Source of the DNA: a virus | DNA: 64,000 bases | IMG/VR virus record: IMGVR_UViG_3300002038_000008 | Location: 1 to 64,000 of that record | Direction: 5' to 3' (one strand) | Shown here: positions 1-63,519 of the stretch, piece after piece | How the letters are laid out: each line of letters begins with the position of its first letter | How positions within the stretch are numbered: position 1 is the stretch's first letter | Notes under the pieces: model-generated | What the model saw: only the letters and a program-made list of their open reading frames with translations | The model's database searches: none | What the model was told of the DNA's origin: nothing | Made by a program: the position numbers and the translations under genes

Positions 1-140
1 ACATTGTAGCATCGATTGCATAGTTTGGTACCCTCGTATTCAGTAGGAAGGCCACAAAGTGTGCAATCTACCCAGCTCAGGCCCCGGGATTCCAGCTCAC
101 TGATGATACTGTTCCTCATATAGTCAGGAAACTCGGTCAT
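1..140 (-). CDS. hypothetical protein, N-terminal part only (gene runs off left edge); CxxC...CxxC Zn-ribbon-like
   Basis: Own minus-strand translation from ATG 140-138: MTEFPDYMRNSIISELESRGLSWVDCTLCGLPTEYEGTKLCNRCYN...; ATG overlaps stop of upstream ORF as TAATG. Confidence 0.3.
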   Translation of the reverse strand, partial: MTEFPDYMRNSIISELESRGLSWVDCTLCGLPTEYEGTKLCNRCYN

Positions 141-355
141 TATAGATACCCCACAAAGATGTCGTACTCGTCGTATATCTCTAATACCCACATGTCATTA
201 TACCAATCCTCTACCTTAAACATTTTGTAGGTGAAGTACCCGACCTCTTGGTTGTAGGCATCGGCAGCATCTTTTGCCAAATCTGGGTCGTAGAATTTAC
301 GAGCACTCTTTAGCTGAATTTCAGAATAATGCACGTCATAGTAGTCTCTAATCAT
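140..355 (-). CDS. hypothetical protein (71 aa)
   Basis: ORF track; member of tightly packed leftward small-gene array; no recognisable motif. Confidence 0.5.
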   Translation of the reverse strand: MIRDYYDVHYSEIQLKSARKFYDPDLAKDAADAYNQEVGYFTYKMFKVEDWYNDMWVLEIYDEYDIFVGYL

Positions 356-491
356 TTTGAAGTATCCTCCAGGCCCTATCTTGAGTAGTGTTCTGAATCT
401 CTTTAACCCTGAGTCTAGTTAATTCTTTAACGGAAAAGTACGTTACTCCGTAACTCAAGACCATAATCAATACAATTGTTACAGTAAGCAT
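348..491 (-). CDS. small membrane protein (47 aa), not in ORF track
   Basis: Own translation MLTVTIVLIMVLSYGVTYFSVKELTRLRVKEIQNTTQDRAWRILQND; N-terminal hydrophobic helix; start overlaps upstream stop (TAATG), stop overlaps next ATG. Confidence 0.35.
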   Translation of the reverse strand: MLTVTIVLIMVLSYGVTYFSVKELTRLRVKEIQNTTQDRAWRILQND

Positions 492-709
492 TATTCTTCA
501 TTCTCCCATAGGCTTCTTAGTACTTCGTATACTTCTTCTCCCTCATCACTCATTAGGAACTTCACCAAGTCTGACGTAGCTCCGTGTCTGGATACCTCTG
601 GTACTTGTTCTATGACACTCATCAAAGAGCACTCTACAGCACCTTCTACTGTGTGATACTCCAAACCACTTCTAGAAACATAAAGTTCAACTAGTTGCTT
701 TTTAATCAT
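491..709 (-). CDS. hypothetical protein (72 aa)
   Basis: ORF track; 4-nt overlap with upstream HNH gene. Confidence 0.5.
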   Translation of the reverse strand: MIKKQLVELYVSRSGLEYHTVEGAVECSLMSVIEQVPEVSRHGATSDLVKFLMSDEGEEVYEVLRSLWENEE

Positions 710-1044
710 TCTGTATCCTCGTAATCTGTCATCGTAATCAGGTCGTGGAGAGCCTCGAATTTAATTTGCTCTTCAAGAGTGGGCATTCTATCAGACTTTG
801 TAGAGTTACATCCACTGCAAGAAAGTACTGTGTTCTCTACTGAGTTACTCCCTTGCTTAGACTTGGGGACAAAGTGATCGACTGACATCTTTCTCTTTTT
901 ACCCTTTTTTGTCATGGTAACCCCACAGTAGAAGCATCGACCCTCTTGAAGTGCTCTCATAAGGGCACGTTTGTGGTCGTTCCTTACGGGGTAGCTTCTT
1001 AGCCTCCCCTCTTTGTACCTTACGATAGGTTTATTAAATATCAC
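706..1044 (-). CDS. HNH endonuclease
   Basis: CFYCG...VDHFVPKSKQGSNSVENTVLSCSGCNSTK = HNH beta-beta-alpha-Me motif flanked by two Cys pairs. ORF is open to 1161 but that overlaps the upstream gene; an in-frame GTG at 1044 sits 2 nt after the upstream stop, so start is uncertain. Confidence 0.8.
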   Translation of the reverse strand: MIFNKPIVRYKEGRLRSYPVRNDHKRALMRALQEGRCFYCGVTMTKKGKKRKMSVDHFVPKSKQGSNSVENTVLSCSGCNSTKSDRMPTLEEQIKFEALHDLITMTDYEDTE

Positions 1045-1045
1045 G

Positions 1046-1546
1046 CTACCGTTCCACGTCTTCTCTAGTGACGTTGTCGCAGACATACTCACTGATGTCA
1101 CCGTCTGTGCAGAGAGCATCGGTCCAGTCATTAAATCCCTCGTTAAGAGCAATTTCGTCATCTTCTCCGTACTTCTCTACTATCATTGCCCTAACTTCCG
1201 GCCACTGGTCTCGGAGTAGTTTCTCCTCTTCCTCTCTTTGCTCGTTGGTTTCAACTACTTTGTGGACTAGTTCCTCGCAGGAGTACCATACCATTAAATT
1301 TTTAAACGATAGCAGGGAGTTGTCTAAGTTTTTGCACCCTCCGAGCAGCTCAAAAACGTTATCGTAACCGCAATTTTCTGCTTGTTCTCCGACTAATTCA
1401 AACAACTCGTCCTCAAATTCATCAAAGATCTTTGTTGTATCCTTATAGTACGTAATGTAAGGAAACCCAGATGAGCACCCGTAAGTAGCTATGTCTTCTA
1501 CGTAGTCCCCGAGGTGCTCGTCGAACCAATCTTTAAATGTGGTCAT
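1046..1546 (-). CDS. hypothetical, strongly acidic early protein (166 aa)
   Basis: ORF track; D/E-rich runs (FDEFEDELFELVGEQAE, EQREEEEK, GEDDEIALNEGFNDWTD). Confidence 0.6.
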   Translation of the reverse strand: MTTFKDWFDEHLGDYVEDIATYGCSSGFPYITYYKDTTKIFDEFEDELFELVGEQAENCGYDNVFELLGGCKNLDNSLLSFKNLMVWYSCEELVHKVVETNEQREEEEKLLRDQWPEVRAMIVEKYGEDDEIALNEGFNDWTDALCTDGDISEYVCDNVTREDVER

Positions 1547-1578
1547 TTGTGCTCTCCTCTAGAAATCATTTCATACTC

Positions 1579-1953
1579 CTAAACTATGTCTATAGTTCCG
1601 TCGCTATACTGGTGTAACGCAATACCTTTGTAAGATGACTTGTCACACCACTCTGTTAGCAAGTCTCCATAATAGGGCCAAGACCCGTCCCAAAACCCCG
1701 CATCAGAACTAGTTAGTGTTAACCAGAGATCATAAGCTGCCATTTTAATTCTTAATCGTGGGTCTGCTTCTTTGAAGAACTCTAGAAGTACTAAGTGTCT
1801 GTTATCATCCCAAAACTCCGAGCAAAGCGCCCTAAGTTGTCCGTAGCACTCATTTGACATTTCTTCCCAGTGCCAGGATTCCCCGCAGGGCTCGCTATAA
1901 ACAAGTGCTGTATCTAAAAACGCTTCGAATAACACCTTTTCCCACTTCGTCAT
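1579..1953 (-). CDS. hypothetical protein (124 aa), Trp-rich
   Basis: ORF track; DLWLTLTSSDAGFWDGSW motif; no function recognised. Confidence 0.55.
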   Translation of the reverse strand: MTKWEKVLFEAFLDTALVYSEPCGESWHWEEMSNECYGQLRALCSEFWDDNRHLVLLEFFKEADPRLRIKMAAYDLWLTLTSSDAGFWDGSWPYYGDLLTEWCDKSSYKGIALHQYSDGTIDIV

Positions 1954-1986
1954 TGTACTCTCTCCTACTACTCTAATGAACTAATC

Positions 1987-2133
1987 CTACTCCCCTCGGG
2001 TTCTCGGTGTCAATAGATTTCTGAGGTTTTCTTTCACTGAATCGAGGGTTTCAGGGTTCTCAGGGACGAGCCTGACCGGTGGGTTATCGTCGGTGTAGTA
2101 GAGCGTGTTTATTTTGTTCCAGAGAGTTTTCAT
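1987..2133 (-). CDS. small hypothetical protein (48 aa), not in ORF track
   Basis: Own translation MKTLWNKINTLYYTDDNPPVRLVPENPETLDSVKENLRNLLTPRTRGE; AAGGAA about 8 nt upstream of ATG; fills an otherwise empty gap. Confidence 0.35.
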   Translation of the reverse strand: MKTLWNKINTLYYTDDNPPVRLVPENPETLDSVKENLRNLLTPRTRGE

Positions 2134-2146
2134 AGTCGAGGTTCCT

Positions 2147-2335
2147 TTAGTGTGGGATCATTATCTCTCCACAGTGCAGGCAATACTGTGACGAGGATCC
2201 CAAACCAATAAAAAAGCCCTCACTAAGGCGGGCTCTCTGAGAGGAGTAGTTGAGGTTTACAATAGGCTCTTGCGTAATTCCTGGTAACTGTCCTCTGATA
2301 ACTCGCTTGCATGTTTTGTATTTGCAGATCTTCAT
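2147..2335 (-). CDS. hypothetical protein (62 aa), possible Zn-ribbon
   Basis: ORF track; CKYKTC ... CLHCG Cys pairs; 4-nt overlap with upstream gene. Confidence 0.45.
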   Translation of the reverse strand: MKICKYKTCKRVIRGQLPGITQEPIVNLNYSSQRARLSEGFFIGLGSSSQYCLHCGEIMIPH

Positions 2336-2646
2336 TCTTGCTCAAGGCTCCTTTTTAGTTCTTCATAGCTCTCCTGTGAGAGTCTAATTAATTTTCCATC
2401 GATGTTAATGGTGTGGTCCTGCTCAAGCTCAAAGAACTGCTTCAGCGTTAACTCTTGATGAATACTACTTCTATACTTATCCTCCTCTATACCATAGGTG
2501 TGGTGAATTTTATTACCCTCGACAGAGTACCTGTAGATAAATGATGCAGTCACGTTAGACAAAAGAAAGCATTTGGACACCGCTTCTCTTACCTCTTCGG
2601 GAAGAAAAGAGATATCTACTTTACCTGTTGTGTACTTATATCTCAT
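2332..2646 (-). CDS. hypothetical protein (104 aa), tandem paralog A
   Basis: ORF track; shares KVDISFLPEEVR / TLKQFFE / INIDGKLIRLSQESYEELKRSL pattern with neighbour 2643..2951. Confidence 0.6.
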   Translation of the reverse strand: MRYKYTTGKVDISFLPEEVREAVSKCFLLSNVTASFIYRYSVEGNKIHHTYGIEEDKYRSSIHQELTLKQFFELEQDHTINIDGKLIRLSQESYEELKRSLEQE

Positions 2647-2951
2647 AGTAGGCTACTCTTCAGCTGCTTAAAACTCTCCTCTGACAGTTCTATACTCTTG
2701 CCGTCAATCTGTATAACGTGCACTTTCTCTTCTTCGAAGAACTCCTTTAGAGTTGCTTCCTTGTGTACGTGTTTGTCGAAGTTTATTCTGAGTGATGCTG
2801 ATAGGTGCGTTCCGTCTTTATATCTAAAAAGGAAGTCATCTTCGTTGGAGCAGCTATGATAGTTTAGTACGACTTTCCTGACTTCTTTCGGTAGCCAAGA
2901 AATGTCCACTTTGCAGGTCTTGTACTTGTAATTTGGTGTCTTAGTTGTCAT
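2643..2951 (-). CDS. hypothetical protein (102 aa), tandem paralog B
   Basis: ORF track; KVDISWLPKEVR / TLKEFFE / IQIDGKSIELSEESFKQLKSSL matches neighbour. Confidence 0.6.
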   Translation of the reverse strand: MTTKTPNYKYKTCKVDISWLPKEVRKVVLNYHSCSNEDDFLFRYKDGTHLSASLRINFDKHVHKEATLKEFFEEEKVHVIQIDGKSIELSEESFKQLKSSLL

Positions 2952-2960
2952 TGTGCTCTC

Positions 2961-3053
2961 TTATACATTGTATTTTTCGGCCTTGCTCTGAAACTCCACG
3001 TCTGGATTGCCACATTCCGGGCAGCGTACTTTTACTGTGTCGAACAGTCCCAT
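2961..3053 (-). CDS. tiny ORF (30 aa) with CPECG half Zn-ribbon, not in ORF track
   Basis: Own translation MGLFDTVKVRCPECGNPDVEFQSKAEKYNV; ATG overlaps upstream stop as TAATG. Confidence 0.25.
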   Translation of the reverse strand: MGLFDTVKVRCPECGNPDVEFQSKAEKYNV

Positions 3054-3280
3054 TATACTAATTCTCCTTTCTCTTGCAGGCTAGCCAGTGCTTGCCGGAT
3101 AATATCAAGATCTTCAAGACCGAAGCCTTCTGTGTGAGATTCCAGATACCAGTTGTTATCTTTTCCTCTTGAAGGAACCAAATAACCTAGAATGTAGCCG
3201 TCGTTCAAGGCAACTTTGTAGACTTGGCCAGGGTTCTCTGTGAAGTCCAAGTGACCAACGCGGAGATGTTTAGTGTTCAT
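3053..3280 (-). CDS. hypothetical protein (75 aa)
   Basis: ORF track. Confidence 0.55.
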   Translation of the reverse strand: MNTKHLRVGHLDFTENPGQVYKVALNDGYILGYLVPSRGKDNNWYLESHTEGFGLEDLDIIRQALASLQEKGELV

Positions 3281-3324
3281 TTTTATTACCTATAGTTGCT
3301 GTTCGCATCTAGCATATTAGCACG

Positions 3325-3531
3325 TCACAGGTCCTTTTTCAGTGCCTGGAAGAACATAAAATCGCTATATAAGCCAGTCCGAGTTCGGCTCACGTGTGGA
3401 ACTACTTGGAGGGAACCCTGGGGTTTCCATCCTCTCTTTAGGTGTTGATTAACTATCTCTTCTGCACCGTGTTGGAATGCAGAGGATACGATAGTGTACT
3501 CAGGGTGTCTTTCTTTTATTGGTACTGGCAT
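3325..3531 (-). CDS. hypothetical protein (68 aa), first gene of leftward array
   Basis: ORF track; AAGGAG about 10 nt upstream of the ATG (reverse complement of 3542-3547). Confidence 0.55.
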   Translation of the reverse strand: MPVPIKERHPEYTIVSSAFQHGAEEIVNQHLKRGWKPQGSLQVVPHVSRTRTGLYSDFMFFQALKKDL

Positions 3532-3566
3532 TTTTCTTGTGCTCCTTTCAATTACATCCCGCGCGG

Positions 3567-3596
3567 ATCATATCACCAAAGGCAGGCACGATACAA
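3567..3596 (-). promoter_or_regulatory. candidate sigma70-type leftward promoter (TTGTAT-18 nt-TATGAT with extended TG)
   Basis: Reverse complement reads TTGTAT cgtgcctgcctttggTGa TATGAT, about 20-25 nt upstream of the RBS of 3325..3531. Confidence 0.3.
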
Positions 3597-4229
3597 GCTC
3601 TGGAGCACAGCAATACACTGTACGTTGCAATACCTCAGACTCTAATTGACCTAGTCCGAGGACTGGCAACAACTAGATAAGGCCGTCCGAATACCCCGAT
3701 TGAGTACGCCGATACCCGATATTGGTACTACCTCAGATGTCAGGGGATGCAGTGAAAGGGGTATTTTCCGCCTTATATTGGTGTCCAAATAGGGCCGTTT
3801 CGTTGCCTCAAATGGGTGTGGGGTGGAACAATGGACTGTTGATGGTACTGTAGTCGCTCCTCCCAACCCACTGCAAGTCCTTGAAATCATTGAGTATTCT
3901 TCTATATTGTATACAAACTGGACAGCAGCGCAGCACACGAGGAAGAGCAAAAACAAGCCAGGGGATGGTCCACACAGAACAGGGACTCCGGTCCCGAATC
4001 CGAACCCACTGCCCACCCTTCCGCTGTGTCACGGATATAGGTATATATAAATGACCCTATACCGGGGAGATTCTGTAGGTTTATCAAGGGCTTAGAAGCA
4101 CGTAACGACAGGGGAACGTCCGACGTTTTATTTTGCCTCCCTTTCCGAAGGAGAACAGATACCGTATAATAATTAGTCAGCCCGTCTCTAAGGGACGGCT
4201 GAAGCTAGAACGAAACTCCGTGAGGTAAA
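3597..4229. other. ORF-poor divergent control region; candidate structured RNA and/or origin
   Basis: Only mutually overlapping, RBS-less ORFs on both strands. G-rich block (~3740-3830) and C-rich block (~3960-4025). Direct repeats CAGGGGATG (3741, 3959), AACCCACTGC (3865, 4003), ATACCC(C)GAT (3691, 3712). Hairpins 3982-3995 and 4032-4064. Terminator-like hairpin plus TTTTATTTT at 4115-4134. TATAAT at 4165-4170. Confidence 0.4.
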
Positions 4230-4874
4230 ATGAAAATGAAGGAGGCCCAGAGAGACTGTCGTTTGCTTCTTTTGAACGAAAGAGGGAACTTATTGTCTAA
4301 TGTACGTATGAATAAAAAAAGTAGAATCCTCGGTCTAGAGGACCTCGATACGGCACGGAGTAAGTCCCATTCGAGGAAAGTTAAAGAAGGTATCCAGAAA
4401 CGGGAGCAGAAGAAGCTCCGTAAGCGTCTGAGGTACATCAAGACGCGAGAAAAGGCAGAGTTGCAGGGTACCCCTTGGTCAGAGTACCAATGGGGCACAG
4501 AGAGGCTCAGGGGCCTCAAGGCCCAATCTCGTCAGAAGGGAAAGTACAGAAAGAAAGCAGAGAAGCTAGCCTACCTCCTTTTCGGGGTAGTCAAACCCCG
4601 GAAACTTCAAGGTAACCATTCTCGTCACTACGAGGAATGGGAACTCAAGATGAACTTCATAACTCAAGGATGGGATCCTTGGACAGGATCCATAGATCCA
4701 GATTCCCCCTTCAAGAGGGGAAGATGGGACCTCGATGTAGAGGATTGGAAGAAGTTGTGGAGCAACTTCCCTGACAGTTTACGTAATTCGTACAGGATTC
4801 GAAGGATAAATCCTGAAGAATCATATACTTATGAGAACTTAATAGTAGAACGGTTACCGAAGAAAGGTAATTAA
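4230..4874 (+). CDS. hypothetical, very basic (K/R-rich) protein with Trp-rich C-terminal domain (214 aa)
   Basis: ORF track; GAGG 4 nt upstream of the ATG; N-terminal ~130 aa Lys/Arg-rich; C-terminus SYRIRRINPEESYTYENLIVE. Confidence 0.5.
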   Translation: MKMKEAQRDCRLLLLNERGNLLSNVRMNKKSRILGLEDLDTARSKSHSRKVKEGIQKREQKKLRKRLRYIKTREKAELQGTPWSEYQWGTERLRGLKAQSRQKGKYRKKAEKLAYLLFGVVKPRKLQGNHSRHYEEWELKMNFITQGWDPWTGSIDPDSPFKRGRWDLDVEDWKKLWSNFPDSLRNSYRIRRINPEESYTYENLIVERLPKKGN

Positions 4875-5043
4875 TTTGTGAATTAATTCCTGAATTCGGG
4901 AACTTGTTATTCTTTTTTGGTGTCTAAATAATGGAACTTATTAGTTGTTAGTGAGTAGGTAGTTAACTCTTAAATCAATTCCTTGGGGGATTGATTAGCT
5001 ACTTTAGAAAGAGTTGACTGGCTACGAACTTACAACTACTAGG

Positions 5044-5078
5044 CTAGAGAGATCGCCCTCTGAGGGAGGGCTCTCTAG
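5044..5078 (+). promoter_or_regulatory. strong imperfect hairpin in 245-nt intergenic region
   Basis: CTAGAGA(g atc)GCCCTC tgagg GAGGGC TCTCTAG: 7 + 6 bp with a small bulge. Confidence 0.35.
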
Positions 5079-5120
5079 ACTACTAACTAGTACTAATTCT
5101 TTTATGTGGAGATCTGTCAA

Positions 5121-5750
5121 ATGAATGTGGATTTACGAGCTCTGTTAGATTCTATTGAGGATCTCCAGGAACAGTTTGAGTTCATCGCGGCTCAACTTCG
5201 GCAAGAAGTACCGGACGACCCCGAAGGGGACGACGAAGTGGTCATTATTGACCCACCTCCGGGCAACGCCCCTGATGAGGACGGGGCCGTTGTACTTTCT
5301 GAGTACACGGACTACGTCGCACAGAAAAAGGCCCGATACTACAACAAGCCCTCGGTCGTAGCGGCCATCGAAGAGAAGAAATTTGATCGGTTTCTCTGGC
5401 ACGACATGCCCCACCTGACGGAGGAGCAGCGCCGGATGGTTCAGGCCAACGGTGATTCCAGCCAGAGTTGGTTCAAGCGCCTGTTCGCCGGGTCTAAGCC
5501 CGGGTGGCAAATCCGTAAGTTTAAGCGGATCGCACGGTTCAATCCCAATTCGGACACCGATATTGAGATCCCGCGCACGGCAGTGCTCTATGACAATACG
5601 TTCACTGTAACTCCGGGGAACAAGGCCTACGATAAGCGGGTACCCTGGGACAAGGGACGCGTACTCGGAGAGGCCAAGACTCACCTGGACCGACGAATCC
5701 AAGATGCCCTGAACGCTCTCGTACAAATTGAAGGCCAACGCCGGGGTTGA
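5121..5750 (+). CDS. hypothetical protein (~209 aa), acidic N-terminus
   Basis: ORF track (opens at GTG 5106; first ATG at 5121 has GGAG 9 nt upstream). A fully overlapping antisense ORF exists, but the plus-strand product looks protein-like. Confidence 0.5.
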   Translation: MNVDLRALLDSIEDLQEQFEFIAAQLRQEVPDDPEGDDEVVIIDPPPGNAPDEDGAVVLSEYTDYVAQKKARYYNKPSVVAAIEEKKFDRFLWHDMPHLTEEQRRMVQANGDSSQSWFKRLFAGSKPGWQIRKFKRIARFNPNSDTDIEIPRTAVLYDNTFTVTPGNKAYDKRVPWDKGRVLGEAKTHLDRRIQDALNALVQIEGQRRG

Positions 5751-5775
5751 CAAATGGATCCTATTGTAATATAGT
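5747..5775 (+). promoter_or_regulatory. near-consensus sigma70-type promoter TTGACA-17 nt-TATAGT
   Basis: ggggTTGACAaatggatcctattgtaaTATAGTatac; the -35 overlaps the stop of the upstream ORF; followed by ~300 nt without credible coding. Confidence 0.45.
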
Positions 5776-6076
5776 ATACTGAGTGCAAGGAGCCACATAG
5801 CCACATAGCCAATCCTGTTTGACTGACCAGACAAGAACTGGTCGGCACCAGGAAGCACTAGCCTTTCGGGGTTAGTGCGTAATATTTAACAGCACAATCG
5901 AGCCGGAGTAGTCACCGGAACGGCCCGTGCGGGGCTCCGACAGAAAGGAGACAAGGGCAAAAATTAGACAGGACCTAGAGAACCGGAGGACCACGTGCAC
6001 TCGGAGTTTCGCTACTACGAACCGCTCGTCGGGTACCTCTGGTTCTCGGGACCGACTCTACAGAAGGGAGCGCACT

Positions 6077-6235
6077 ATGGAGTATGACGAACAAAAACGT
6101 AAGGCTGAGGCACTACGGATATTTCAGGAGGCCCGAAGAGAGCACCTGGTAGCTGTCCTAGAAGAATACCTAAATAGTGAAGAGTACTTAAACAGTAAGG
6201 GTCGAGAGTGCCAGACTGAAGTGACCACCGATTAA
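6077..6235 (+). CDS. small hypothetical protein (52 aa)
   Basis: ATG 6077 preceded by GAAGGGAG about 7 nt upstream; product MEYDEQKRKAEALRIFQEARREHLVAVLEEYLNSEEYLNSKGRECQTEVTTD. The track's GTG-5927 extension is Arg/Ser-rich junk. Confidence 0.45.
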   Translation: MEYDEQKRKAEALRIFQEARREHLVAVLEEYLNSEEYLNSKGRECQTEVTTD

Positions 6236-6276
6236 GAATTTAACTAACTTGTTTTTAGAAGGGAACACGTTATATT

Positions 6277-6618
6277 ATGCCGAACTGGTATCGCTACGAA
6301 AATAGTATTATTAACCTAGATTTAGTTTACTCTGTAACATACTCAGAGCCTCGTGATATTACGTACTTTAAGACGACCGAATGTGACTACGATTGGGAAA
6401 TGGAAGGTGACCACACGGAGGCCATCCTAAATAATGGAGTCGAGCAGGTTGAGCAAAGCGAGATAGACGCGGAGTTGGATGCCGCTGTGCAGGAAGCCTA
6501 CGAGAATTTACAACGGGAATCGGCTGAGCGTATCCACGAGATGGAAGACACCACCGAGAGTCTCCGAGCTGATACGATGAATTACTTGCACAAGTACTGC
6601 TCGGGGCTACGAGATTGA
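6277..6618 (+). CDS. hypothetical protein (113 aa)
   Basis: ORF track; first gene of a coupled run ending in the HslV-like genes. Confidence 0.55.
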   Translation: MPNWYRYENSIINLDLVYSVTYSEPRDITYFKTTECDYDWEMEGDHTEAILNNGVEQVEQSEIDAELDAAVQEAYENLQRESAERIHEMEDTTESLRADTMNYLHKYCSGLRD

Positions 6619-6992
6619 GCTCCTCTCGTGCTGAAAACGTAAGTTCCGGTCGCAGTGTCACGGAAGTGAGTATTAGCGGAGAATGGCTCCACTACTTCGA
6701 GACCAATGTAGAAGCTAAAACCGTAGATTATGAGTTTCGAGTACCAATAAAAAACATAGAAAGTTTAGAATCTTTTTATCAGAAGGATTCTTCCTGGAAA
6801 GAGTTCCTTACGTGGTACACGGTGCTATACACCGGGTCCAGAAGCTACGATCTTCTTGGAGTTGAGTCTAGCACCATACTTTCCTTGCTGGATGCCTACG
6901 AAGAGGTAAATATTCCAAATTATTCTTTCTACGAGGTAGATTGGGAAAAGAACAAAAAATACACCTCCGAACTGGAGCCCGAGAAGTTGTGA
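6615..6992 (+). CDS. hypothetical protein (~125 aa; TTG start uncertain)
   Basis: ORF track; TTG at 6615 overlaps upstream TGA (TTGA); its stop overlaps the GTG start of the next gene. Confidence 0.5.
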   Translation: MSSSRAENVSSGRSVTEVSISGEWLHYFETNVEAKTVDYEFRVPIKNIESLESFYQKDSSWKEFLTWYTVLYTGSRSYDLLGVESSTILSLLDAYEEVNIPNYSFYEVDWEKNKKYTSELEPEKL

Positions 6993-7462
6993 CTACAGTA
7001 GCTTATAAAGACGGAATCATGGTATCGGACCTGGCGGCAACTACGATGAGCGGTCATCGCATTGCCACAGTAAAGAAAATCTTCCAGGCCCACGGATACA
7101 CCATGGGATTTGCCGGAGATCCCGAAGCAGTACCGCTGCTCTTGAAGTGGTTCACCGATGAGGATTGGACACCTAATGCGCAGTTGCCCTACAAGCTCGT
7201 AGACGACGAGGAAGTGCTGCCTGATAACCGAATCATATTCGAAGTCATCCTGGTAGACCAAGAAGGCAATGTCTGGACACACTTTAAAGGGGAGCACCTC
7301 CATGCGGTGTTGGACAAGGAGATTGCCATAGGCAACGGCCAGCAGTACGCAAGGGCGGCAATGGCCCTGGGATTCGATGCTGAGACAGCTGTTGTGAAGG
7401 CCTCTCAGTTTTGTGGGTTCACCAGTGAAGAAGTAGACATAGCGGAGACAAATAATGGATAA
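6989..7462 (+). CDS. HslV/ClpQ-like (proteasome beta-type) Ntn-hydrolase peptidase, paralog 1
   Basis: GTG 6989 (GTGA overlap with upstream stop) gives (M)TTVAYKDGIMVSD...ATVKKIFQ...GFAGD...EIAIGNGQQYARAAMALG. Compare E. coli HslV MTTIVSVRRNG...GDGQ...VKKVRRL...GFAGG...AIGSGG. An alternative ATG at 6941 would add a 16-aa leader. Confidence 0.7.
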   Translation: MTTVAYKDGIMVSDLAATTMSGHRIATVKKIFQAHGYTMGFAGDPEAVPLLLKWFTDEDWTPNAQLPYKLVDDEEVLPDNRIIFEVILVDQEGNVWTHFKGEHLHAVLDKEIAIGNGQQYARAAMALGFDAETAVVKASQFCGFTSEEVDIAETNNG

Positions 7463-7595
7463 GCAAGGATGGCTAAGCACTGAAACAATTATCGGAGCAG
7501 GTGCCAGTAACATCAAGGACGCTGTAGAGACTGCAGGGATCTCTGGATTCGGCAATGGATAAGTACGGAATATGAGTGACACCTACACAGGATTT

Positions 7596-7670
7596 TGACC
7601 TGTAGCTCAGCGGTAGAGCTCCCGGCTGTTAACCGGGCGGTCGTAGGTTCGAATCCTACCGGGTCAGCCA
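7596..7670 (+). tRNA. tRNA-Asn: tRNA-Asn (anticodon GTT), CCA encoded
   Basis: Hand-folded cloverleaf. Acceptor TGACCTG/CGGGTCA (one G-U). D arm GCTC-AGCGGTA-GAGC. Anticodon arm CCCGG-CTGTTAA-CCGGG. Variable CGGTC. T arm GTAGG-TTCGAAT-CCTAC. Discriminator G plus CCA. Confidence 0.9.
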
Positions 7671-7690
7671 AATAAATCTTCGGAGATAAC

Positions 7691-8113
7691 GTGACAACGA
7701 TAGTGTTCAAAAAAGGAGTCATGGCCGGAGACAGTCAGATTACTGACGGCAATCATAACTTCTCCCAAGTACAGAAAGTGTTTAAGCTAGATGGGTACCT
7801 ACTGGGAGTGGCCGGAACTTTCTCTGAGTGCCAAGGTTATAAATCCTGGATAGAGACTTCGATGGACATGAAGGTGTTCCCAGAAGAGACAGAGGTAGAT
7901 GGGTGCGCCTTGTTGTACGATACTAACAAAGAGCTCCTCTACCTGCTGGAAAAGAACGAAAAGATTATTTTGGGTGACGAATTCGTAGCTATCGGATCCG
8001 GTGCCCAGTTTGCCATAGGTGCCCTGGAACAAGGGGCCTCGGCAAAGAAAGCAGTACAGGTTGCCTCCAAGTATGACGTGTACACCGGAGGAGACATTAA
8101 AGTAGTAAGATAA
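7691..8113 (+). CDS. HslV/ClpQ-like (proteasome beta-type) Ntn-hydrolase peptidase, paralog 2
   Basis: GTG start with GGAG 5 nt upstream. Product is (M)TTIVFKKGVMAGDSQITDG...VQKVFKL...GVAGT...FVAIGSGAQFAIGALEQG, with N-terminal Thr, GD, Lys and AIGSG motifs as in HslV; 139 aa. Confidence 0.75.
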   Translation: MTTIVFKKGVMAGDSQITDGNHNFSQVQKVFKLDGYLLGVAGTFSECQGYKSWIETSMDMKVFPEETEVDGCALLYDTNKELLYLLEKNEKIILGDEFVAIGSGAQFAIGALEQGASAKKAVQVASKYDVYTGGDIKVVR

Positions 8114-8114
8114 C

Positions 8115-8191
8115 GTCTGTCTCGTATAAAAGGAAGTACGAACACGCTCCAAACGTGTTAGGCCTGGGTTCGAGTCCTAGGACATTCGCCA
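8115..8191 (+). tRNA. tRNA-Trp(CCA)-like element, possibly degenerate
   Basis: T arm CTGGG-TTCGAGT-CCTAG. Anticodon arm ACACG-CTCCAAA-CGTGT. Discriminator G plus CCA. D arm GTAT-AAAAGGAA-GTAC. However, the acceptor GTCTGTC/GACATTC has two pyrimidine-pyrimidine mismatches (2:71, 3:70) and there is one extra nt before the anticodon stem. Confidence 0.4.
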
Positions 8192-8289
8192 AAGTTTACA
8201 GGTACTCGGTTAATTCGTGTGCTCCGAAAGCCTGTTCGAAGACCTCGTGTAAGTTCTAGTCTATAGCACTAAAGTACTAGCGTCGAGGC

Positions 8290-8369
8290 CGGTCAGAGTT
8301 GATCACTGACCGTAATCCTCCCCTCGGTAGTCTCAGACCGAGGCCCGCACTTGGCCACAACCAGGTGCG
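8290..8369 (+). promoter_or_regulatory. cluster of three stem-loops upstream of the fibre-cluster operon
   Basis: Hairpins 8290-8312 (7 bp), 8322-8343 (7 bp) and 8346-8369 (9 bp incl. one G-U) in a 206-nt non-coding gap. Confidence 0.35.
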
Positions 8370-8397
8370 CTCTATTTAAGGACCCACGTAGATTCTT

Positions 8398-8649
8398 ATG
8401 TCTTGGTTGAAACGAAGAAAAATTAGAAAGACCAAGAAGCAAGGTCTACTGGGCGAAAGCCTCGGGTACACCGAGGAAGAGTTAGAAAATTATGTGGACA
8501 GGGACCTTACGGGGTCCCTTATTCTGCAATTGCGTAAGAGGATCCACGATCCGGCGTACGAGTCAGACAAAGAAGATTACCGAGTCAAGGTGATGCAACT
8601 TCAGGTCTTGCTCCAGACCGACTCTCCTCAGAGAGCGGCAGGTAAATAA
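8398..8649 (+). CDS. hypothetical protein (83 aa), basic N-terminus
   Basis: ORF track. Confidence 0.5.
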   Translation: MSWLKRRKIRKTKKQGLLGESLGYTEEELENYVDRDLTGSLILQLRKRIHDPAYESDKEDYRVKVMQLQVLLQTDSPQRAAGK

Positions 8650-9074
8650 TGTCAGCACCGGGCATAAGTTTCCAAGTGGCATCTCAGATGCTCCAGGTAT
8701 TGCTAAACTCCATAGACACCGGAGCAGGCACTGCAACTCTGGAGATTCGAGCAGGAGCACCTCCTGCCACCGTAGATGACACTGCCACCGGCGCCATCCT
8801 TGCGATCTTTGCTTTGCCCAATCCCTCTTTCGGCCTACCTGCAGACGCCAATCCTAACGCCGTAGCCACGGCAGCACCCGTAGCCCCTGCCAATGCCATA
8901 GGTACCGGAGTAGCCGGATGGTTCAGGGTCTATAATCGGGACGGACTGGCAGTACACCAAGGGGACGTTACAGAGACCGGTAACGGAGGAGATGCAATCA
9001 TCAGCGACGAGAACGTAGTTGCAGGAGCAGAGCTCACAGTAATTTCTTGGACTATCACCCAGCCGGAGTCTTAA
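8649..9074 (+). CDS. hypothetical small Ala/Gly/Thr-rich beta-type protein heading the fibre cluster (141 aa)
   Basis: ORF track; TAATG overlap with upstream gene; composition typical of small virion/fibre-associated proteins. Confidence 0.45.
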   Translation: MSAPGISFQVASQMLQVLLNSIDTGAGTATLEIRAGAPPATVDDTATGAILAIFALPNPSFGLPADANPNAVATAAPVAPANAIGTGVAGWFRVYNRDGLAVHQGDVTETGNGGDAIISDENVVAGAELTVISWTITQPES

Positions 9075-9077
9075 ACT

Positions 9078-10334
9078 GTGGCGTACCGAGATGATCTGAT
9101 AGCTCTGGGAGCCAACCACGTGTGGCCGTGCGACGGAAATCTGAACGATATAGTAGGTACGCTAAATTTCGTAAATAGTGGTGGTGTGTTTACTGGGCCT
9201 GCACTTTGCGAAGATGTCTCTACTAGTTATACCACGAACGGGACTAACGATAGCGGGCTTGCTGCATCAGATGCCAGTGTACAAGACGTAACTGTAGATT
9301 ATTGTTACAGTATTTGGTTCAGGACCACAGCTATTCAGCAACCGCCTTGTAGGGTCTTCGGAGACGGTGGCCAAACCGCGAACAACTCGTTCTTTATGGG
9401 AATCGGAAACTCCGTTGTTGCCGAAGCTGACTGTGATCCGGAAGTGATACAAGTCGGCAGTGACGTCGCCATCGTGCCTAATAGGCCGTACAACCTGGTT
9501 TTGGTCTTTCGTGACATAGGAGGGGGAACGAGCGAGCTGGAGTTCTTTATTGACGGAGTGTCTAAAGGCACGCAAGATGTGTTAGATGTCTCCAACGCTG
9601 GAAGAGGAGGATTTCGGATAGGGGGCATCACTGGAACTGCCAGTTACTCTATTGGGGGAACTAATTTTCAGTTGGTTTCTCCAGTTAACGGGAACTACAA
9701 TTTCGTATCTACTTATGTTGGTCCGGATGTTCCCTCTGCTGCTGAGATCCGAAATACAATATTTGAGAAGGGAGCCTCACCTGGGATTACTATAGCCTCG
9801 GACACGGAGGCCAACATGCAAGCAGCACTAAATACTATAGCCTCCACTTTGCGGCCTAATGAAGCTTTGAACATCAGAGTAGAAGAGTTAACAGGAGGAG
9901 GAGACCTAACTCTAGTAGCTGACAACGTAACTCACGATCCTCTGGCTTCTATCCACATCCAGTACATGGGGACGGATACTCTGACCTGGGTTAATGACAA
10001 TGGATCGGATGCCTCTCTGGGTTCTGCTCCTAACCTAGGACAGATAAATTTCGTTACTAATGTGACTGTGGCTCTGACTGTGCTGTCTGCTTCTGATTTT
10101 ACTCCTATTTCGGGAGCTCGGATATTTTTGACAGATAGTGGCGGCGAAATATTTAACGACCTGACAGATGTCAATGGACAGATCAGCTTTAGTTATGGGT
10201 ACTCTGCTCCAGAAGGAATTTCTGGAAGAGCCAGAAAGGGAACAACTTCTCCTTACTTTGTATCCACTGACATTGTAGGTACGATAGAGCAGTCTGGGTT
10301 TGATGCGACCATATTAATGCTTTCGGACGAATAA
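9078..10334 (+). CDS. tail fibre/receptor-binding protein with LamG (concanavalin-like) domain and C-terminal beta-sandwich module
   Basis: GTG start. LamG-like YSIWFRTT...NRPYNLVLVF...ELEFFIDGVSKG. C-terminal ~200 aa paralogous to the end of 10338..13064 (FEKGA, GGGDLTL, NDLTDVNGQISF, ...SDE stop). Confidence 0.6.
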   Translation: MAYRDDLIALGANHVWPCDGNLNDIVGTLNFVNSGGVFTGPALCEDVSTSYTTNGTNDSGLAASDASVQDVTVDYCYSIWFRTTAIQQPPCRVFGDGGQTANNSFFMGIGNSVVAEADCDPEVIQVGSDVAIVPNRPYNLVLVFRDIGGGTSELEFFIDGVSKGTQDVLDVSNAGRGGFRIGGITGTASYSIGGTNFQLVSPVNGNYNFVSTYVGPDVPSAAEIRNTIFEKGASPGITIASDTEANMQAALNTIASTLRPNEALNIRVEELTGGGDLTLVADNVTHDPLASIHIQYMGTDTLTWVNDNGSDASLGSAPNLGQINFVTNVTVALTVLSASDFTPISGARIFLTDSGGEIFNDLTDVNGQISFSYGYSAPEGISGRARKGTTSPYFVSTDIVGTIEQSGFDATILMLSDE

Positions 10335-10337
10335 ATT

Positions 10338-13064
10338 ATGGCCGTAGTAAAAGTAGAAACTTTTGATGTCTCTCCCAGTACTGACGGGACAACTCACACC
10401 TTAACAAATGACGTAGGTTCTTTAACTAGTGCGTTTGTTAAGATTAACGGCTCTAACGACAAGGGGTCGGGACGAGTAGGAAGTACTGGAAATGCAGGAC
10501 CTCGCGATACCCACATGGGTGTCAGCTTAACTGCAACAGATGAGATCACGTTTCACAAGGGCGGCACCCTCCAAATGCGCAAGATGGGAGAGGTCTGGCG
10601 TTATACAGGCTCTCCGGGAGGGCTGGACGAATTCATTGTCCGAGGTCACTTGTCCATTACTTTGGCAGGAGGAGTGGCGTCCAATACTGCCGCAATTCCG
10701 AGCCTCGGAGATAGAAACAAGGTAGTTCCGTTTCTTACGGGGCTCAGTAGTACTTCGACTAGCACCAGCGACCACGACTCCACCACAGTAGCGGTGTTTG
10801 TTAATGCTTCGGATGAGCTTGTTGCAACCAGGCAAAGCACCGGTCAGGCCATAACAGTTTACGTTTCTGTGGTCGAATTTACGGGAATTAACTGGTCAGT
10901 AGGCCATGGCGTGTCCACCAATCATGACACGGCCCAAGAGATCGTAACTCTAAACACGGATTCTACAGGTACCGGGGGATCCGTGTTTGATGTGGGAGAC
11001 TGGTCGAATGCTTTCCTGGAAGGTACGACTCAGGGGGACACAGCAGAAACGGGCCTATCGGATAATCTTTTTATTGCTGAGCCTGGAGCAACTACAACCC
11101 AAGTCAGGGTATTTTTTCAGCAAGACGGAAATGCTAGAAACGACGGAGATGCTTACGTACACGCAGTAGTAAATGCCGGTATGGTAGTTACTCGGGACTC
11201 GAACACTAATTTTCCCGAGACTAACGGAACTATCGGAACCCTGGGGTTTCCTCCGGGCACCTCCTCGTCAGCTCTTCTGGACGAGCTGGCACTGGAATGG
11301 TTCGCAGACACCAGCGGAGTTGGAACAGCACATTCGCGTGGCCGGGTTATATCTCGCATTACTAACGCCTCCGGGACTATCGAGCACTGGGTGCATCGTT
11401 CCGGTAATAATGTTGCAATTTATTATGGCGTAATAAATCTAACTGGGGTGCAGGGTGTAGAGCCTGTAACCATAACATCCGCCCCAACTCAGATAGACGC
11501 AGGAGATCTAAATTTAGTAGTTATAGGAACAAATTTCGAAGCAACGCAAGGCGCAGGAACTGTTTACATATCTGATACTGCCTCTGTAGGAAGTGGTACG
11601 AACGTAGTACAGAGCATTGACACGTGGTCTGATACGAGCATACAGTTTGATTCTAACTTAGCGGGGTTACCGGACGGCATCGTATATATCATTGTTGAGA
11701 ACGCCAGCGGAGGAACAGCAGCCTGGTTGTTGAATAAGGGAATTCCTCCTTACACTGAGGTCATCACAACGATGATTAATCAGCCGGACCACTATCACAC
11801 TTTTGATAATACTTATGTTGCGTCCTTGGGAGGTTTTGCCGCCAACAGTTTGAATGCAGGCACTGGCACGGTTGGGTTCTTTTTAGATCCGGGCACAAGA
11901 GGAAGGACACACTCCTGGGGACCTACGGGCAGCGCCTCTAGAATTGAAATGCTAGATTCTCCTTTTACTAACGTAACTAATACGCATCGTAGGAGATTTA
12001 TAGCCGGGTTCTTTAAGTTCCCAGAAGTGCCCTTAGATCCTAAAGGCATTTGGGAAGAGGGCGGCAACGTTAACAATATTTATATGATCATCGGTTTCGG
12101 CGGAAGATTATTATGTAACGTAGCTGACTCTAGTAATGGATTTAAGTTGCAAGCGTTCTCAGATTTTATTTTGACACCTAATCGGTGGTACCACATCGGA
12201 ATATTATTTGATGGCGATGTCGGATGTAGGTGCTATATTGACGGAGTCCTCCAACAAGGATTTGATGGAGTGGCTCCTAACTCTGACCAAGCAACTCATT
12301 CCGGAGATTTTTCTTATGGGCAACCTGATGGATCTTTGGATACCGGAGGTACTGATATTAGCTACCCCTCCTTTAGTGGGTCTCGATACAACGACTGGAA
12401 ATCCTGGAGCGATACAGGGAACGATGTTCCCCCGGATACGGACATTCGCATTGAGGTCTTTGAGAAGGGAGCTCGAACAGATTTAGAGATCCTGTCAGAT
12501 ACGCCCGCTAACATGCAACTAGCGGCGAACTTACTGAGTGGGACTTCTTATCCGGACACACCTCTTGCAATAAAGGTGAACCGCCCCTCTGGAGGTGGGG
12601 ATCTGACGTTGACTTTTGACGATGTTACTTTCGAAGAAAGAACTAGTATCCAGATTCAATGGACTGGAGGAACAGGAGAAACCCTCACGATCATAAACAG
12701 TAACGGATCCAACATAGAACTAGAGAAATGCTCTACGGCATACGGAGGAACTATAGAGGTTATAGATACTGTTGTTGCGACAATTACTGTTCTCGACTTT
12801 GATCAGCAGCCAATACAAAATGCTCGCGTGTACGTAGAAGCATCTTCTGGAGGACCGTTAGTAGAAGGAACGGTACTTTTTAACGACTTAACTGACACTA
12901 ATGGTACTGTTTCATTTAATTTTTTGTACGACGGAAATGCACAGCCTGTTGTGGGTAGAACCCGTAAGAGTTCTGTGTCTCCCTTGTTCAAGTCGCAGCC
13001 CCTTACGGGAAGCATCACAAGCAGTGGCCTAAATTTAACCGTCTTTATGGACTCAGACGAATAG
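10338..13064 (+). CDS. large tail fibre/receptor-binding protein (908 aa) with LamG domain and the same C-terminal module
   Basis: LamG-like FIAGFFKF...NRWYHIGILFDG...CYIDGVLQ; C-terminal FEKGA...GGGDLTL...NDLTDTNGTVSF...SDE. Confidence 0.6.
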   Translation: MAVVKVETFDVSPSTDGTTHTLTNDVGSLTSAFVKINGSNDKGSGRVGSTGNAGPRDTHMGVSLTATDEITFHKGGTLQMRKMGEVWRYTGSPGGLDEFIVRGHLSITLAGGVASNTAAIPSLGDRNKVVPFLTGLSSTSTSTSDHDSTTVAVFVNASDELVATRQSTGQAITVYVSVVEFTGINWSVGHGVSTNHDTAQEIVTLNTDSTGTGGSVFDVGDWSNAFLEGTTQGDTAETGLSDNLFIAEPGATTTQVRVFFQQDGNARNDGDAYVHAVVNAGMVVTRDSNTNFPETNGTIGTLGFPPGTSSSALLDELALEWFADTSGVGTAHSRGRVISRITNASGTIEHWVHRSGNNVAIYYGVINLTGVQGVEPVTITSAPTQIDAGDLNLVVIGTNFEATQGAGTVYISDTASVGSGTNVVQSIDTWSDTSIQFDSNLAGLPDGIVYIIVENASGGTAAWLLNKGIPPYTEVITTMINQPDHYHTFDNTYVASLGGFAANSLNAGTGTVGFFLDPGTRGRTHSWGPTGSASRIEMLDSPFTNVTNTHRRRFIAGFFKFPEVPLDPKGIWEEGGNVNNIYMIIGFGGRLLCNVADSSNGFKLQAFSDFILTPNRWYHIGILFDGDVGCRCYIDGVLQQGFDGVAPNSDQATHSGDFSYGQPDGSLDTGGTDISYPSFSGSRYNDWKSWSDTGNDVPPDTDIRIEVFEKGARTDLEILSDTPANMQLAANLLSGTSYPDTPLAIKVNRPSGGGDLTLTFDDVTFEERTSIQIQWTGGTGETLTIINSNGSNIELEKCSTAYGGTIEVIDTVVATITVLDFDQQPIQNARVYVEASSGGPLVEGTVLFNDLTDTNGTVSFNFLYDGNAQPVVGRTRKSSVSPLFKSQPLTGSITSSGLNLTVFMDSDE

Positions 13065-48396: not shown

Positions 48397-48629
48397 AGCA
48401 AGTTATCCTTAATGAAGTCAGCAAAGGCCCCGGCATATCTCAGATCATTTACTTGGAGGGCCTCTCCTCGGGCAGTCAAGACGTAGTAGTCCTCTCCCCC
48501 CTCGTCGTAAGCGATGCCCTCGTCAACGAAAGTTAATCCAAACTCTTGGATGTTCTCAGTCATTACGTTGTCAATGGCCCTTTTCCAGGCAATTGCCTTC
48601 TCATCTTGGAACATGTCAGGTTGCTTCAT
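48393..48629 (-). CDS. hypothetical protein (78 aa)
   Basis: ORF track. Confidence 0.5.
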   Translation of the reverse strand: MKQPDMFQDEKAIAWKRAIDNVMTENIQEFGLTFVDEGIAYDEGGEDYYVLTARGEALQVNDLRYAGAFADFIKDNLL

Positions 48630-49131
48630 TATCTCTACTCTCCCACTGGTTTAGCATCTCGTGGTACTCTATTGGCTCGTATCCTATGTGCTCCAGGCAC
48701 GTGTTAAAGTAATCAGCCCCGTCCGGTCCTCCGTTGTGACAGTGCCCGTGTATGTTCCGTCTTCCTCTGAGCTCCGTTGGATGTATTGGGCAATGACTAA
48801 GCCAGAACTTCTTATACCGATGCAACCCTACCACATCATCGAAGTATTGTAAATACTCGGAGGCATTAAGTAGGTCGTGGTTCCCTCTCACGAGGACCTT
48901 CGAGCCAGTTAGATCTTCGATCGACAACAGCCCTTCTTTCGTGAAAGCCGCATCTCCCATTACGTACACCTTGTCGCGCTTGCCAACTACTCTGTTCCAC
49001 CTGTAAATGATTTCTTCTCGATGCTCTTGCTCACTTTGTATAGGAACTCCAAACCTCTCTAGTAGGGGGCGGAACTTGTGGACGTTCGTGTGGCCAAAGT
49101 GCAGGTCTCCTATAAAGTAGACACGGCTCAT
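48616..49131 (-). CDS. calcineurin-like metallophosphoesterase
   Basis: VYFIGDLHFGH, VYVMGDAAF, GNHD and HGHCH are the MPP signature blocks. ATG 49131 overlaps the upstream stop (ATGA); the track ORF opens at 49221. Confidence 0.75.
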   Translation of the reverse strand: MSRVYFIGDLHFGHTNVHKFRPLLERFGVPIQSEQEHREEIIYRWNRVVGKRDKVYVMGDAAFTKEGLLSIEDLTGSKVLVRGNHDLLNASEYLQYFDDVVGLHRYKKFWLSHCPIHPTELRGRRNIHGHCHNGGPDGADYFNTCLEHIGYEPIEYHEMLNQWESRDNEAT

Positions 49132-49313
49132 TGTTTCTCTCTCTTCATCAGTAGGGCCAACTCCTGGGCTGCTAATCTTATCAGGGACTCCAGAGCCGGA
49201 CCATATATCCATATGGCCCAAGCCCTGGCTGCGTTGTGTCCGATCTCATTAATGCGGAGGGCATAGGCCTCCACTTGAGAGTTTCGGAACTTAGGATGTC
49301 CTCCTAGTGCCAT
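49128..49313 (-). CDS. hypothetical protein (61 aa)
   Basis: ORF 49128..49340 trimmed to ATG 49313; stop coupled (ATGA) to the phosphoesterase start. Confidence 0.4.
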   Translation of the reverse strand: MALGGHPKFRNSQVEAYALRINEIGHNAARAWAIWIYGPALESLIRLAAQELALLMKREKQ

Positions 49314-51503: not shown

Positions 51504-51682
51504 CGACTCTTAATATCAAAGTGTATTGCCATGGCAATCAAAACTACCAGACCCAAGAAATTTAGTAATACTCCAGATAAGTTTCCTTCTTGGTACCAGT
51601 TCAGCATCCACAAAAGAGGTATTGTAGAGCATGCCACGAAACCCGCCGCGTTCAGCAGCCTAGTTCTTGTACTCTGTTTCAC
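51500..51682 (-). CDS. small two-TM membrane protein (60 aa)
   Basis: GTG 51682 overlaps upstream stop (GTGA) with AAGGAG 8 nt upstream; the track extension to 51922 lies inside the upstream gene. Confidence 0.45.
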   Translation of the reverse strand: MKQSTRTRLLNAAGFVACSTIPLLWMLNWYQEGNLSGVLLNFLGLVVLIAMAIHFDIKSR

Positions 51683-59285: not shown

Positions 59286-59603
59286 TTACTCGAACCCTCC
59301 ACTAAACATCGGTACCACCTGGATATCAATAGATCCGTGAACATCAGTGGCAAACTCATTATAATCTATTTCCACTCTCCATGCAAAGGTATCTAGAGAA
59401 TAGTCCCAGACACACTCTCCGTAGAGGTAAGTACCAATCAGTTTCCCATCTAAGTAGATAGAAGGGTACAGATCCGTAACTTCTGTCCTCTCTACCCACT
59501 CAGTCCGGTCCTCCACAAAGTCATCGTTAATGAACAAGGGATTACTGTAGCAAAGTACGTCTACAATAATAGGGAATATAATTCCGGCTGACAAGCTAAT
59601 CAT
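59286..59603 (-). CDS. hypothetical protein (105 aa), N-terminal TM
   Basis: ORF track; GAGGA RBS upstream. Confidence 0.5.
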   Translation of the reverse strand: MISLSAGIIFPIIVDVLCYSNPLFINDDFVEDRTEWVERTEVTDLYPSIYLDGKLIGTYLYGECVWDYSLDTFAWRVEIDYNEFATDVHGSIDIQVVPMFSGGFE

Positions 59604-59791
59604 TTTCTATTTTCCTCATAAAGAATCCGGAGAATCTAATGGAATATCCAGCTCCGCGTCGTACATTTCCATAGTGCTGTATTTAAATTCAGGAAAGGAG
59701 TCCACGTAAGACTTTTCTTTCTCATCTTCAGAAAATACCCCATGAAAGTCTGAGCCCTCTTAAGGATAACTTGTTACAACAACATATACTG

Positions 59792-60241: not shown

Positions 60242-60259
60242 TTCTCCTTAAATCTAAGA

Positions 60260-63414: not shown

Positions 63415-63519
63415 ACTAATTAACCTACAAGTCCTGTTTTGTTGTATAACCTACTAGTCATTAGACCTCTTAATGACTCATATAAGATACATAAAGGGGT
63501 CTATTTCTTATCTTGTGCG

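Follow-up and report, generated by a model that had tools for sequence, protein, structure and literature searches.

Proteasome-like proteins encoded by phages have been described as a family, PPH, whose members have ~140 residues and were found in Caudovirales and prophages (Fuchs et al. 2021). According to the same study, helix H2 is missing only from PPH and its relative RPC among the homologues, Group I homologues have neither S12 nor H5, and propeptides are confined to proteasome beta subunits and HslV. No AAA+ partner co-occurs with any of the new homologues reported there, and ATPase-independent action was suggested for them, together with the warning that some may form no rings at all (Fuchs et al. 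2021). We analyzed a 64,000-nt stretch of viral DNA, positions 1 to 64,000 of IMG/VR record IMGVR_UViG_3300002038_000008 (hereafter the window), in which an earlier note had reported two paralogous genes interleaved with tRNAs and had read them as an orphan pair of HslV (ClpQ)-like peptidases. Both genes, referred to below as paralog 1 and paralog 2, are new additions to PPH, which forms a compact branch of the proteasome-like Ntn-hydrolase family in phages, and are not HslV orthologues.

The earlier note was not aware of this as a described phage function, which was wrong at the level of family description: PPH has been published, and annotations of such genes exist in PHROGs and in many GenBank records of phages. 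The labels used in GenBank are "HslV family peptidase", "proteasome subunit beta" and "nucleophile aminohydrolase", and the labelled carriers are Caulobacter, Rhizobium, Aeromonas, Vibrio, Klebsiella, Ruegeria, Erythrobacter and Pseudomonas phages. For a Salmonella jumbo phage, the presence of two HslV genes and no HslU was stated explicitly (PMC7823757).

The window proteins share with described PPH a size of ~140 aa, a Met-Thr-Thr start, the absence of a propeptide and equivalents of Thr1, Asp17, Lys33 and Gly47. They also share the absence of H2 and of S12/H5, the location in a tailed phage and the absence of an AAA+ partner. The locus differs from described PPH in that two copies are found in one 66-kb genome, whereas the genomes of most carriers annotated in the phage collection have 115-357 kb. 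In addition, paralog 1 is longer (157 aa), has a longer acidic loop and carries the unique replacements Ser129 to Asn and Asp166 to Cys. Finally, tRNAs are interleaved with the window genes, in contrast to nine other loci where none was present.

A comparable arrangement is found in Aeromonas phage 4L372XY, in which two unlike proteasome-like genes, gp205 and gp206, each of them labelled "peptidase HslV family", stand side by side. As in the window, one protein of the pair is PPH-like with a full GSG...D..SGG set (gp206) and the other is divergent (gp205, which starts with MTC and presents Cys for Ser and the motif GCG). The two systems differ in that gp206 has an RPC-like C-terminal extension of ~130 aa, gp205 has 183 aa and belongs to another branch, no tRNAs are located nearby and the genome is of the myovirus type with 124 kb.

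Family placement and predicted fold

Both proteins matched the family phrog_1040 ("peptidase HslV family"), paralog 1 with an E-value of 7e-25 and paralog 2 with an E-value of 6e-39, and sequence matches to proteins of Caulobacter, Rhizobium, Vibrio and Aeromonas phages were obtained. The Pfam family Proteasome (PF00227) was matched by paralog 2 only (2.5e-8). The two paralogs are 25% identical to each other (E 3e-12). Scores against the HslV equivalog models TIGR03692 and PRK05456 stayed far under the cut-offs for paralog 2 (24.8 and 24.4 bits relative to 157.75 and 137, respectively), and paralog 1 gave no relevant match in NCBIfam and none to the HslV equivalog models. The NCBIfam model of archaeal proteasome beta yielded 37 bits for paralog 2, where the cut-offs of the NCBIfam models range from 137 to 224 bits. 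When the sequences of the PDB were searched with paralog 2, yeast beta5 (5.8e-7) was nearer than any HslV (0.0034). Because the HslV models score so far under their cut-offs and yeast beta5 is nearer, the "HslV signature" initially recognized in these proteins was too specific, and it is better described as a general proteasome-type Ntn signature.

AlphaFold2 models of the two proteins, which are predictions and not solved structures, were built on a 21-sequence alignment. The predicted local distance difference test score (pLDDT) and the predicted template modelling score (pTM) were 88.3 and 0.84 for paralog 1 and 91.2 and 0.86 for paralog 2. Both models present a two-sheet core, helices H3 and H4 and one final strand after H4, without S12/H5. 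A single helix (residues 44-56 or 45-56) is found where HslV and the proteasome carry H1 and H2, and H2 is the missing one. In paralog 1, the position of the pore loop is occupied by an acidic loop of ~27 residues (57-83) modelled with low confidence, and it is because of this insertion that the protein reaches 157 aa. The models thus show for both proteins a predicted proteasome-beta/HslV Ntn-hydrolase fold without H2 and without a propeptide.

Foldseek comparisons of the models with the PDB retrieved HslV (6kui, 1m4y), BPH (5ovs) and 20S beta subunits, with template modelling (TM) scores of 0.65-0.71 and identities of 13-22%, and no closer solved structure was found in the PDB with this approach. 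Among the viral models of BFVD, 48 proteins were matched at E <= 1e-3, including the "proteasome subunit beta" of Caulobacter phage CcrBL9 and proteins of Aeromonas phage 4L372XY, Vibrio phage VpV262 and several jumbo phages. Membership in the proteasome-beta/Ntn family, as proposed in the earlier note, is therefore confirmed by PF00227 (paralog 2), phrog_1040, the AlphaFold2 models (pLDDT 88 and 91) and the Foldseek matches to HslV, BPH and 20S beta subunits.

The comparison with HslV itself shows both likeness and distance. The core sandwich fold is common to them, the Thr1 nucleophile would be exposed through Met removal in the window proteins as in HslV, and HslV entries were the best structural matches in the PDB (6kui and 1m4y, TM ~0.65). 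Identity is, however, 17-22% over the structural alignments, the cut-offs of the HslV equivalog models are not reached, and the window proteins are 20-35 residues shorter than HslV (~175 aa), have no H2 and come from a genome without hslU. BPH of Thiobacillus denitrificans (PDB 5ovs) is, like the window proteins, a Group I homologue with no known unfoldase (Foldseek TM 0.69-0.70), and it has a long acidic pore loop as does paralog 1. In contrast to them, BPH is a bacterial protein of ~185 aa that has the complete H1/H2 pair and assembles into heptameric double rings; identity with it is ~17%.

One further resemblance of paralog 1 was considered and rejected. The segment GFAGDPEAVPLLLKWFTDEDW (window 7085-7204, paralog 1 residues 33-72) matched artificial alphaRep proteins (HEAT/PBS-lyase-type repeats) and NblB. 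The summed E-value is inflated because the targets contain repeats, and the likeness is most likely due to chance because the segment corresponds to helix H1 and the acidic loop; a chance resemblance to one motif was multiplied by the repeats of the targets.

Active-site residues and the missing unfoldase

Conservation was counted on an alignment of 163 relatives (median length 146 aa) and is reported with the numbering of paralog 2. The Thr2, Asp14 and Gly42 columns are each conserved in 161 of the 163 sequences and the Lys29 column in all 163. The column of Ser103, which corresponds to proteasome Ser129, contains Ser in 151 sequences, Thr in seven and Cys in two, and Asn is seen only in paralog 1. 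Likewise, the column of Asp129 (proteasome Asp166) contains Asp in 152 sequences, and Cys occurs only in paralog 1. Paralog 2 presents the complete residue set: Thr1, Asp14, Lys29, Gly42, Ser103, Asp129 and Thr132-Gly-Gly. Paralog 1 retains Thr1, Asp (D14) and Lys as well as Gly (K29/K30 and G42/G43 in the two proteins), and it presents N116 in place of Ser129 (AIGNG), C142 in place of Asp166, and T145-S-E. The view that both active sites are intact consequently holds for paralog 2, whereas paralog 1 departs from it with AIGNG and with Cys for Asp. In proteasomes, Ser129 and Asp166, together with Ser/Thr169, hold the amine of Thr1 (Huber et al. 2016, as cited).

A start with MTT was found in 152 of the 163 relatives and in both window proteins, and the Thr directly after Met that had been singled out earlier is indeed the norm of the family. 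Because so many relatives begin with MTT, we favor GTG 6989 over position 6941 as the start of paralog 1. The codon at 6941 had been given as ATG and is in fact TTG, and an independent gene caller likewise placed the start so as to give 157 aa. A profile search against 1.84 billion cluster representatives yielded 15,791 matches at E <= 1e-3, 9,911 at E <= 1e-10 and 417 at E <= 1e-30; the best 150 of the 15,791 matches are mostly 134-200 aa long and aligned from residue 1.

The 66.4-kb genome encodes no AAA+ unfoldase at any position. When the 70 open reading frames (ORFs) of the window were scanned against Pfam and PHROG, no AAA, ClpX or HslU family was identified, in agreement with the earlier note, which had seen no HslU partner. 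Walker-A motifs were found only in the terminase, the helicase, a 335-aa MazG-fusion protein that joins a P-loop to a dATP/dGTP diphosphohydrolase, and two other ORFs from among the structural genes. The rest of the genome was covered by an identical metagenome contig (Logan SRR5078292_55704, 17,848 bp), which corresponds to window positions 1-10988 and 59588-64000 with 0 mismatches and joins both ends. The resulting circular map has 66,447 bp, and the window represents nearly the whole genome. The 2,447 bp beyond the window contain small ORFs only, including the remainder of an HNH endonuclease gene and most of a helix-turn-helix (HTH) regulator gene. An hslU gene just outside the window, for which the earlier note had left room, is thus absent from the closed circle.

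Cassette, tRNAs and genomic setting

The PPH genes are part of a small cassette (Table 1). As previously described, both genes have GTG starts and the GTG at 6989 overlaps the upstream TGA. The gap between the paralogs is 228 bp (7463-7690), and the two genes are located in one apparent transcription unit.

Table 1. Positions of the genes and candidate control signals of the PPH cassette in the window.
Feature	Position	Strand	Basis or remark
Sigma-70-like promoter candidate, TTGACA-17-TATAGT, 11/12	5747..5775	+	Consensus scan; upstream of cassette; inferred match
ORF, 113 aa, first of three translationally coupled genes	6277..6618	+	Also called on the identical Logan contig
ORF, 125 aa; TTG start overlaps preceding stop, stop overlaps paralog 1 GTG	6615..6992	+	
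PPH paralog 1, 157 aa, GTG start overlapping TGA 6990-6992	6989..7462	+	
Small ORF, 35 aa, overlaps paralog 1 end; status uncertain	7455..7562	+	Gene caller on the identical Logan contig
tRNA-Asn (GTT)	7596..7670	+	ARAGORN; Rfam tRNA 70.5 bits
PPH paralog 2, 140 aa, GTG start, GGAG 5 nt upstream	7691..8113	+	
tRNA-Trp (CCA), weak	8115..8191	+	ARAGORN; Rfam tRNA 33.2 bits vs gathering score 29
Terminator-like hairpin, 9 pairs, 6 G-C	8346..8369	+	Consensus scan, inferred; between cassette and structural operon starting 8398

ARAGORN detected just two tRNAs in the 64 kb, tRNA-Asn and tRNA-Trp. The statement that each PPH gene is followed by a tRNA was correct in that both were found, the second one weak, but a 35-aa ORF (7455-7562) intervenes between paralog 1 and tRNA-Asn. 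This ORF, MDKQGWLSTETIIGAGASNIKDAVETAGISGFGNG, has the 10-nt string AATGGATAAG (repeat D2) at both its start and its end and was proposed by the gene caller alone. The tRNA-Trp(CCA) is marginal, with U-U and C-U mismatches at the acceptor-stem pairs 2:71 and 3:70, and the label "Trp-like" is fair because of these two mismatched pairs. An antisense ORF of 217 aa over paralog 1 (6929..7582) was also considered and is unsupported: on the identical contig, the caller chose the plus-strand genes with the same starts.

The alternation of peptidase and tRNA genes had been attributed to duplication of a [peptidase + tRNA] unit, and we found no evidence for this scenario. No DNA repeat links the two units, the identities of the tRNAs differ and the paralogs do not form a sister pair: in a ranking of the relatives of paralog 1, paralog 2 comes 44th, and in that of paralog 2, paralog 1 comes 165th of 171. 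A recent tandem duplication was rejected on these grounds. A general association of PPH with tRNAs was rejected as well, since nine other loci were free of tRNAs over 4-10 kb around PPH. The two ORFs upstream of paralog 1 (6277..6618 and 6615..6992) could not be assigned to any family of Pfam, PHROG or PADLOC and gave no phage match (by tblastn for the 113-aa ORF). These ORFs were rejected as additional proteasome-like subunits or conserved partners, as they show no similarity to the PPH profile and have no relatives. The tRNA genes are probably mere neighbors in an accessory region and not part of the enzyme system.

The PPH loci of other genomes present varied neighbors, no AAA+ gene and mostly a single copy; among the nine loci, Aeromonas phage 4L372XY is the only one with more than one copy. 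Neighbors at different loci are a metallophosphoesterase, lysis genes and a primase-helicase, and a weak Acb2/Tad1-like ORF is located near the PPH gene of P0010. In the ~150-kb roseophages RpAliso, RcXuper and DSS3_MAL1, PPH abuts or overlaps a gene for a polynucleotide kinase (or 'zeta toxin'). The PPH gene of Ruegeria phage RpAliso (84466-84981, locus L006) has an RNA ligase gene upstream and NAD-salvage genes downstream, and such surroundings are characteristic of genes for counter-defence and RNA repair. The closest partial relative of paralog 2 (locus L003) was considered for synteny and is not syntenic with the window.

The Pfam and PHROG scans of the window further identified a terminase, an SU10-type portal, a capsid, tail proteins and an endolysin, as well as PolA, a DnaB-type helicase, a primase-like protein, exonucleases, endonuclease I, an RNA ligase and a metallophosphoesterase. 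The terminase-portal-capsid block is located at 23.4-29.8 kb. The PPH genes lie 15 kb upstream of it and, as the earlier note had argued, are not part of the head module. No near-identical phage DNA was found in GenBank. Based on the capsid protein, the closest cultured phages are Stenotrophomonas phage StenR_269 and Xanthomonas phage DES1 (45-46% identity), and neither gave a PPH match. Because these nearest capsid relatives gave no PPH match, the cassette is accessory in this lineage. A recent foreign origin of the cassette was rejected: base composition is uniform and the composition profile shows no sign of it.

Several other genes of the window were recorded. The RNA ligase (57516-58433) and the metallophosphoesterase (48616-49221) are both distant from the PPH genes. 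The 335-aa ORF mentioned above (51679-52686, minus strand) carries a Walker-A motif (ARKNSGKT) in its N-terminal part and a dATP/dGTP diphosphohydrolase domain (PF18909) in its C-terminal part, and PF18909 is also found near PPH on two unrelated metagenome contigs (L013 and L014). Two plus-strand ORFs of exactly 214 aa each (4230-4874 and 5106-5750) are found between the divergent early genes and the cassette with the PPH genes; mutually unrelated (E 2.5), they belong to no PHROG or PADLOC family. Finally, a match to phrog_11227 "protease" (8.8e-51) was traced to a 149-aa ORF beside the DnaB-type helicase (59792-60241, minus strand) and was rejected as a peptidase. This ORF presents a transmembrane helix and a coiled coil and weakly resembles SPFH/prohibitin proteins (QmcA, prohibitin), and the PHROG label is probably misleading for it.

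Proposed function and alternatives

We consider it rather probable that paralog 2 is an ATPase-independent Thr peptidase of PPH type encoded in an accessory cassette and that paralog 1 is a weakened or re-specialized member of the same family. The initiator Met would be removed to expose Thr1 as the nucleophile, as is established for E. coli HslV. Paralog 2 is probably the catalytically competent peptidase because it presents the full Thr1/Asp17/Lys33 triad and equivalents of Gly47, Ser129, Asp166 and Thr169. It would act without a dedicated ATPase on unfolded substrates or on specific proteins or peptides. Judging from its residues, paralog 1 is probably catalytically weakened or re-specialized because the positions that place the Thr1 amine are lost (Ser129 to Asn and Asp166 to Cys) and its acidic pore loop is longer; it may partner paralog 2. 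Expression is likely driven from a separate accessory cassette, between the candidate promoter at 5747 and the candidate terminator at 8346, and not together with the head genes.

Several points weigh against this explanation. Peptidase activity, oligomeric state and substrates are all deduced from homology, and the searchable literature contains descriptive mentions of phage members and no experimental or biochemical study of any of them. The superfamily includes members with non-protease activity, connectase being described as a ligase. The placement in PPH, whose sequence cluster has WP_042125023.1 as its representative (Fuchs et al. 2021), is based on structural criteria and, indirectly, on the matches to phrog_1040 and to the phage proteins named above. 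The promoter and the terminator are consensus matches only. Finally, a search of 5.8 billion sequences, conducted with the sensitivity of a word index, returned no orthologue of paralog 1 except its identical sequence.

Alternatively, the two proteins might form a hetero-oligomeric ring in which paralog 2 is catalytic and paralog 1 serves as a gate-like subunit of weakened or absent activity, which would repeat on a small scale the alpha/beta split of the proteasome. The short distance between the copies in one apparent transcription unit is consistent with such a ring, and so are the loss of the Ser129 and Asp166 equivalents, unique to paralog 1, and its longer acidic loop at the site of the pore loop. 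In addition, a long acidic pore loop accompanies unfoldase-independent rings in BPH (Fuchs et al. 2021), and the adjacent unlike pair is seen again in Aeromonas phage 4L372XY. However, paralog 1 retains Thr1, Asp and Lys, which sets it apart from a classic inactive subunit, single-copy loci prevail for PPH, and the warning that some of the new homologues may form no rings applies here (Fuchs et al. 2021). We therefore regard a mixed ring as unlikely.

It was also proposed that the phage proteins hijack HslU, docking on the HslU hexamer of the host where they would replace or mix with host HslV and redirect ATP-dependent proteolysis. The phage has no unfoldase, most proteobacterial hosts have HslU, and the fold is nearest to HslV and BPH in the PDB. 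This scenario is nevertheless unlikely given the very low scores of the HslV equivalog models and the absence from both structural models of helix H2, which forms part of the apical face that HslU sits against in HslUV structures. It is further opposed by the absence of AAA+ co-occurrence and the ATPase-independent action suggested for these homologues (Fuchs et al. 2021).

Another alternative is that the proteins are specific Ntn enzymes, such as amidases, site-specific processing enzymes or ligases, directed at a single target in the host or phage, which might be a defence protein. The superfamily is described as holding many non-protease Ntn hydrolases in addition to connectase, and the accessory regions with PPH sometimes contain counter-defence-type genes, as in RpAliso and near P0010. 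Neither protein has a connectase-like insertion over the active site, no neighbor gene is conserved, and no PADLOC or anti-defence family was matched, which makes this alternative improbable. In a more elaborate scenario, the two PPH copies would build an ATPase-free hetero-oligomeric mini-proteasome, with paralog 2 catalytic and the loop of paralog 1 gating the pore. This particle would remove host defence or takeover targets and be co-expressed with replacement tRNAs in one counter-defence cassette; we consider this a long shot. Finally, a role in head or virion maturation is very improbable: although the head module contains no recognised prohead protease family, the PPH genes are located 15 kb away, with a terminator-like site of their own in between, unrelated phages that carry PPH have separate head modules, the closest capsid relatives have no PPH, and many podoviruses mature without a protease.

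These results do not reveal a new kind of system; they correct the label of the two genes from orphan HslV to PPH. What is particular to this phage is the degenerate second copy and the interleaving with tRNAs. With thousands of matching sequence clusters, PPH constitutes a large viral branch of the proteasome family. This phage, in which a canonical copy stands beside a copy without the Ser129 and Asp166 equivalents in a genome without an unfoldase, provides a natural comparison from which biochemical work on PPH could start.

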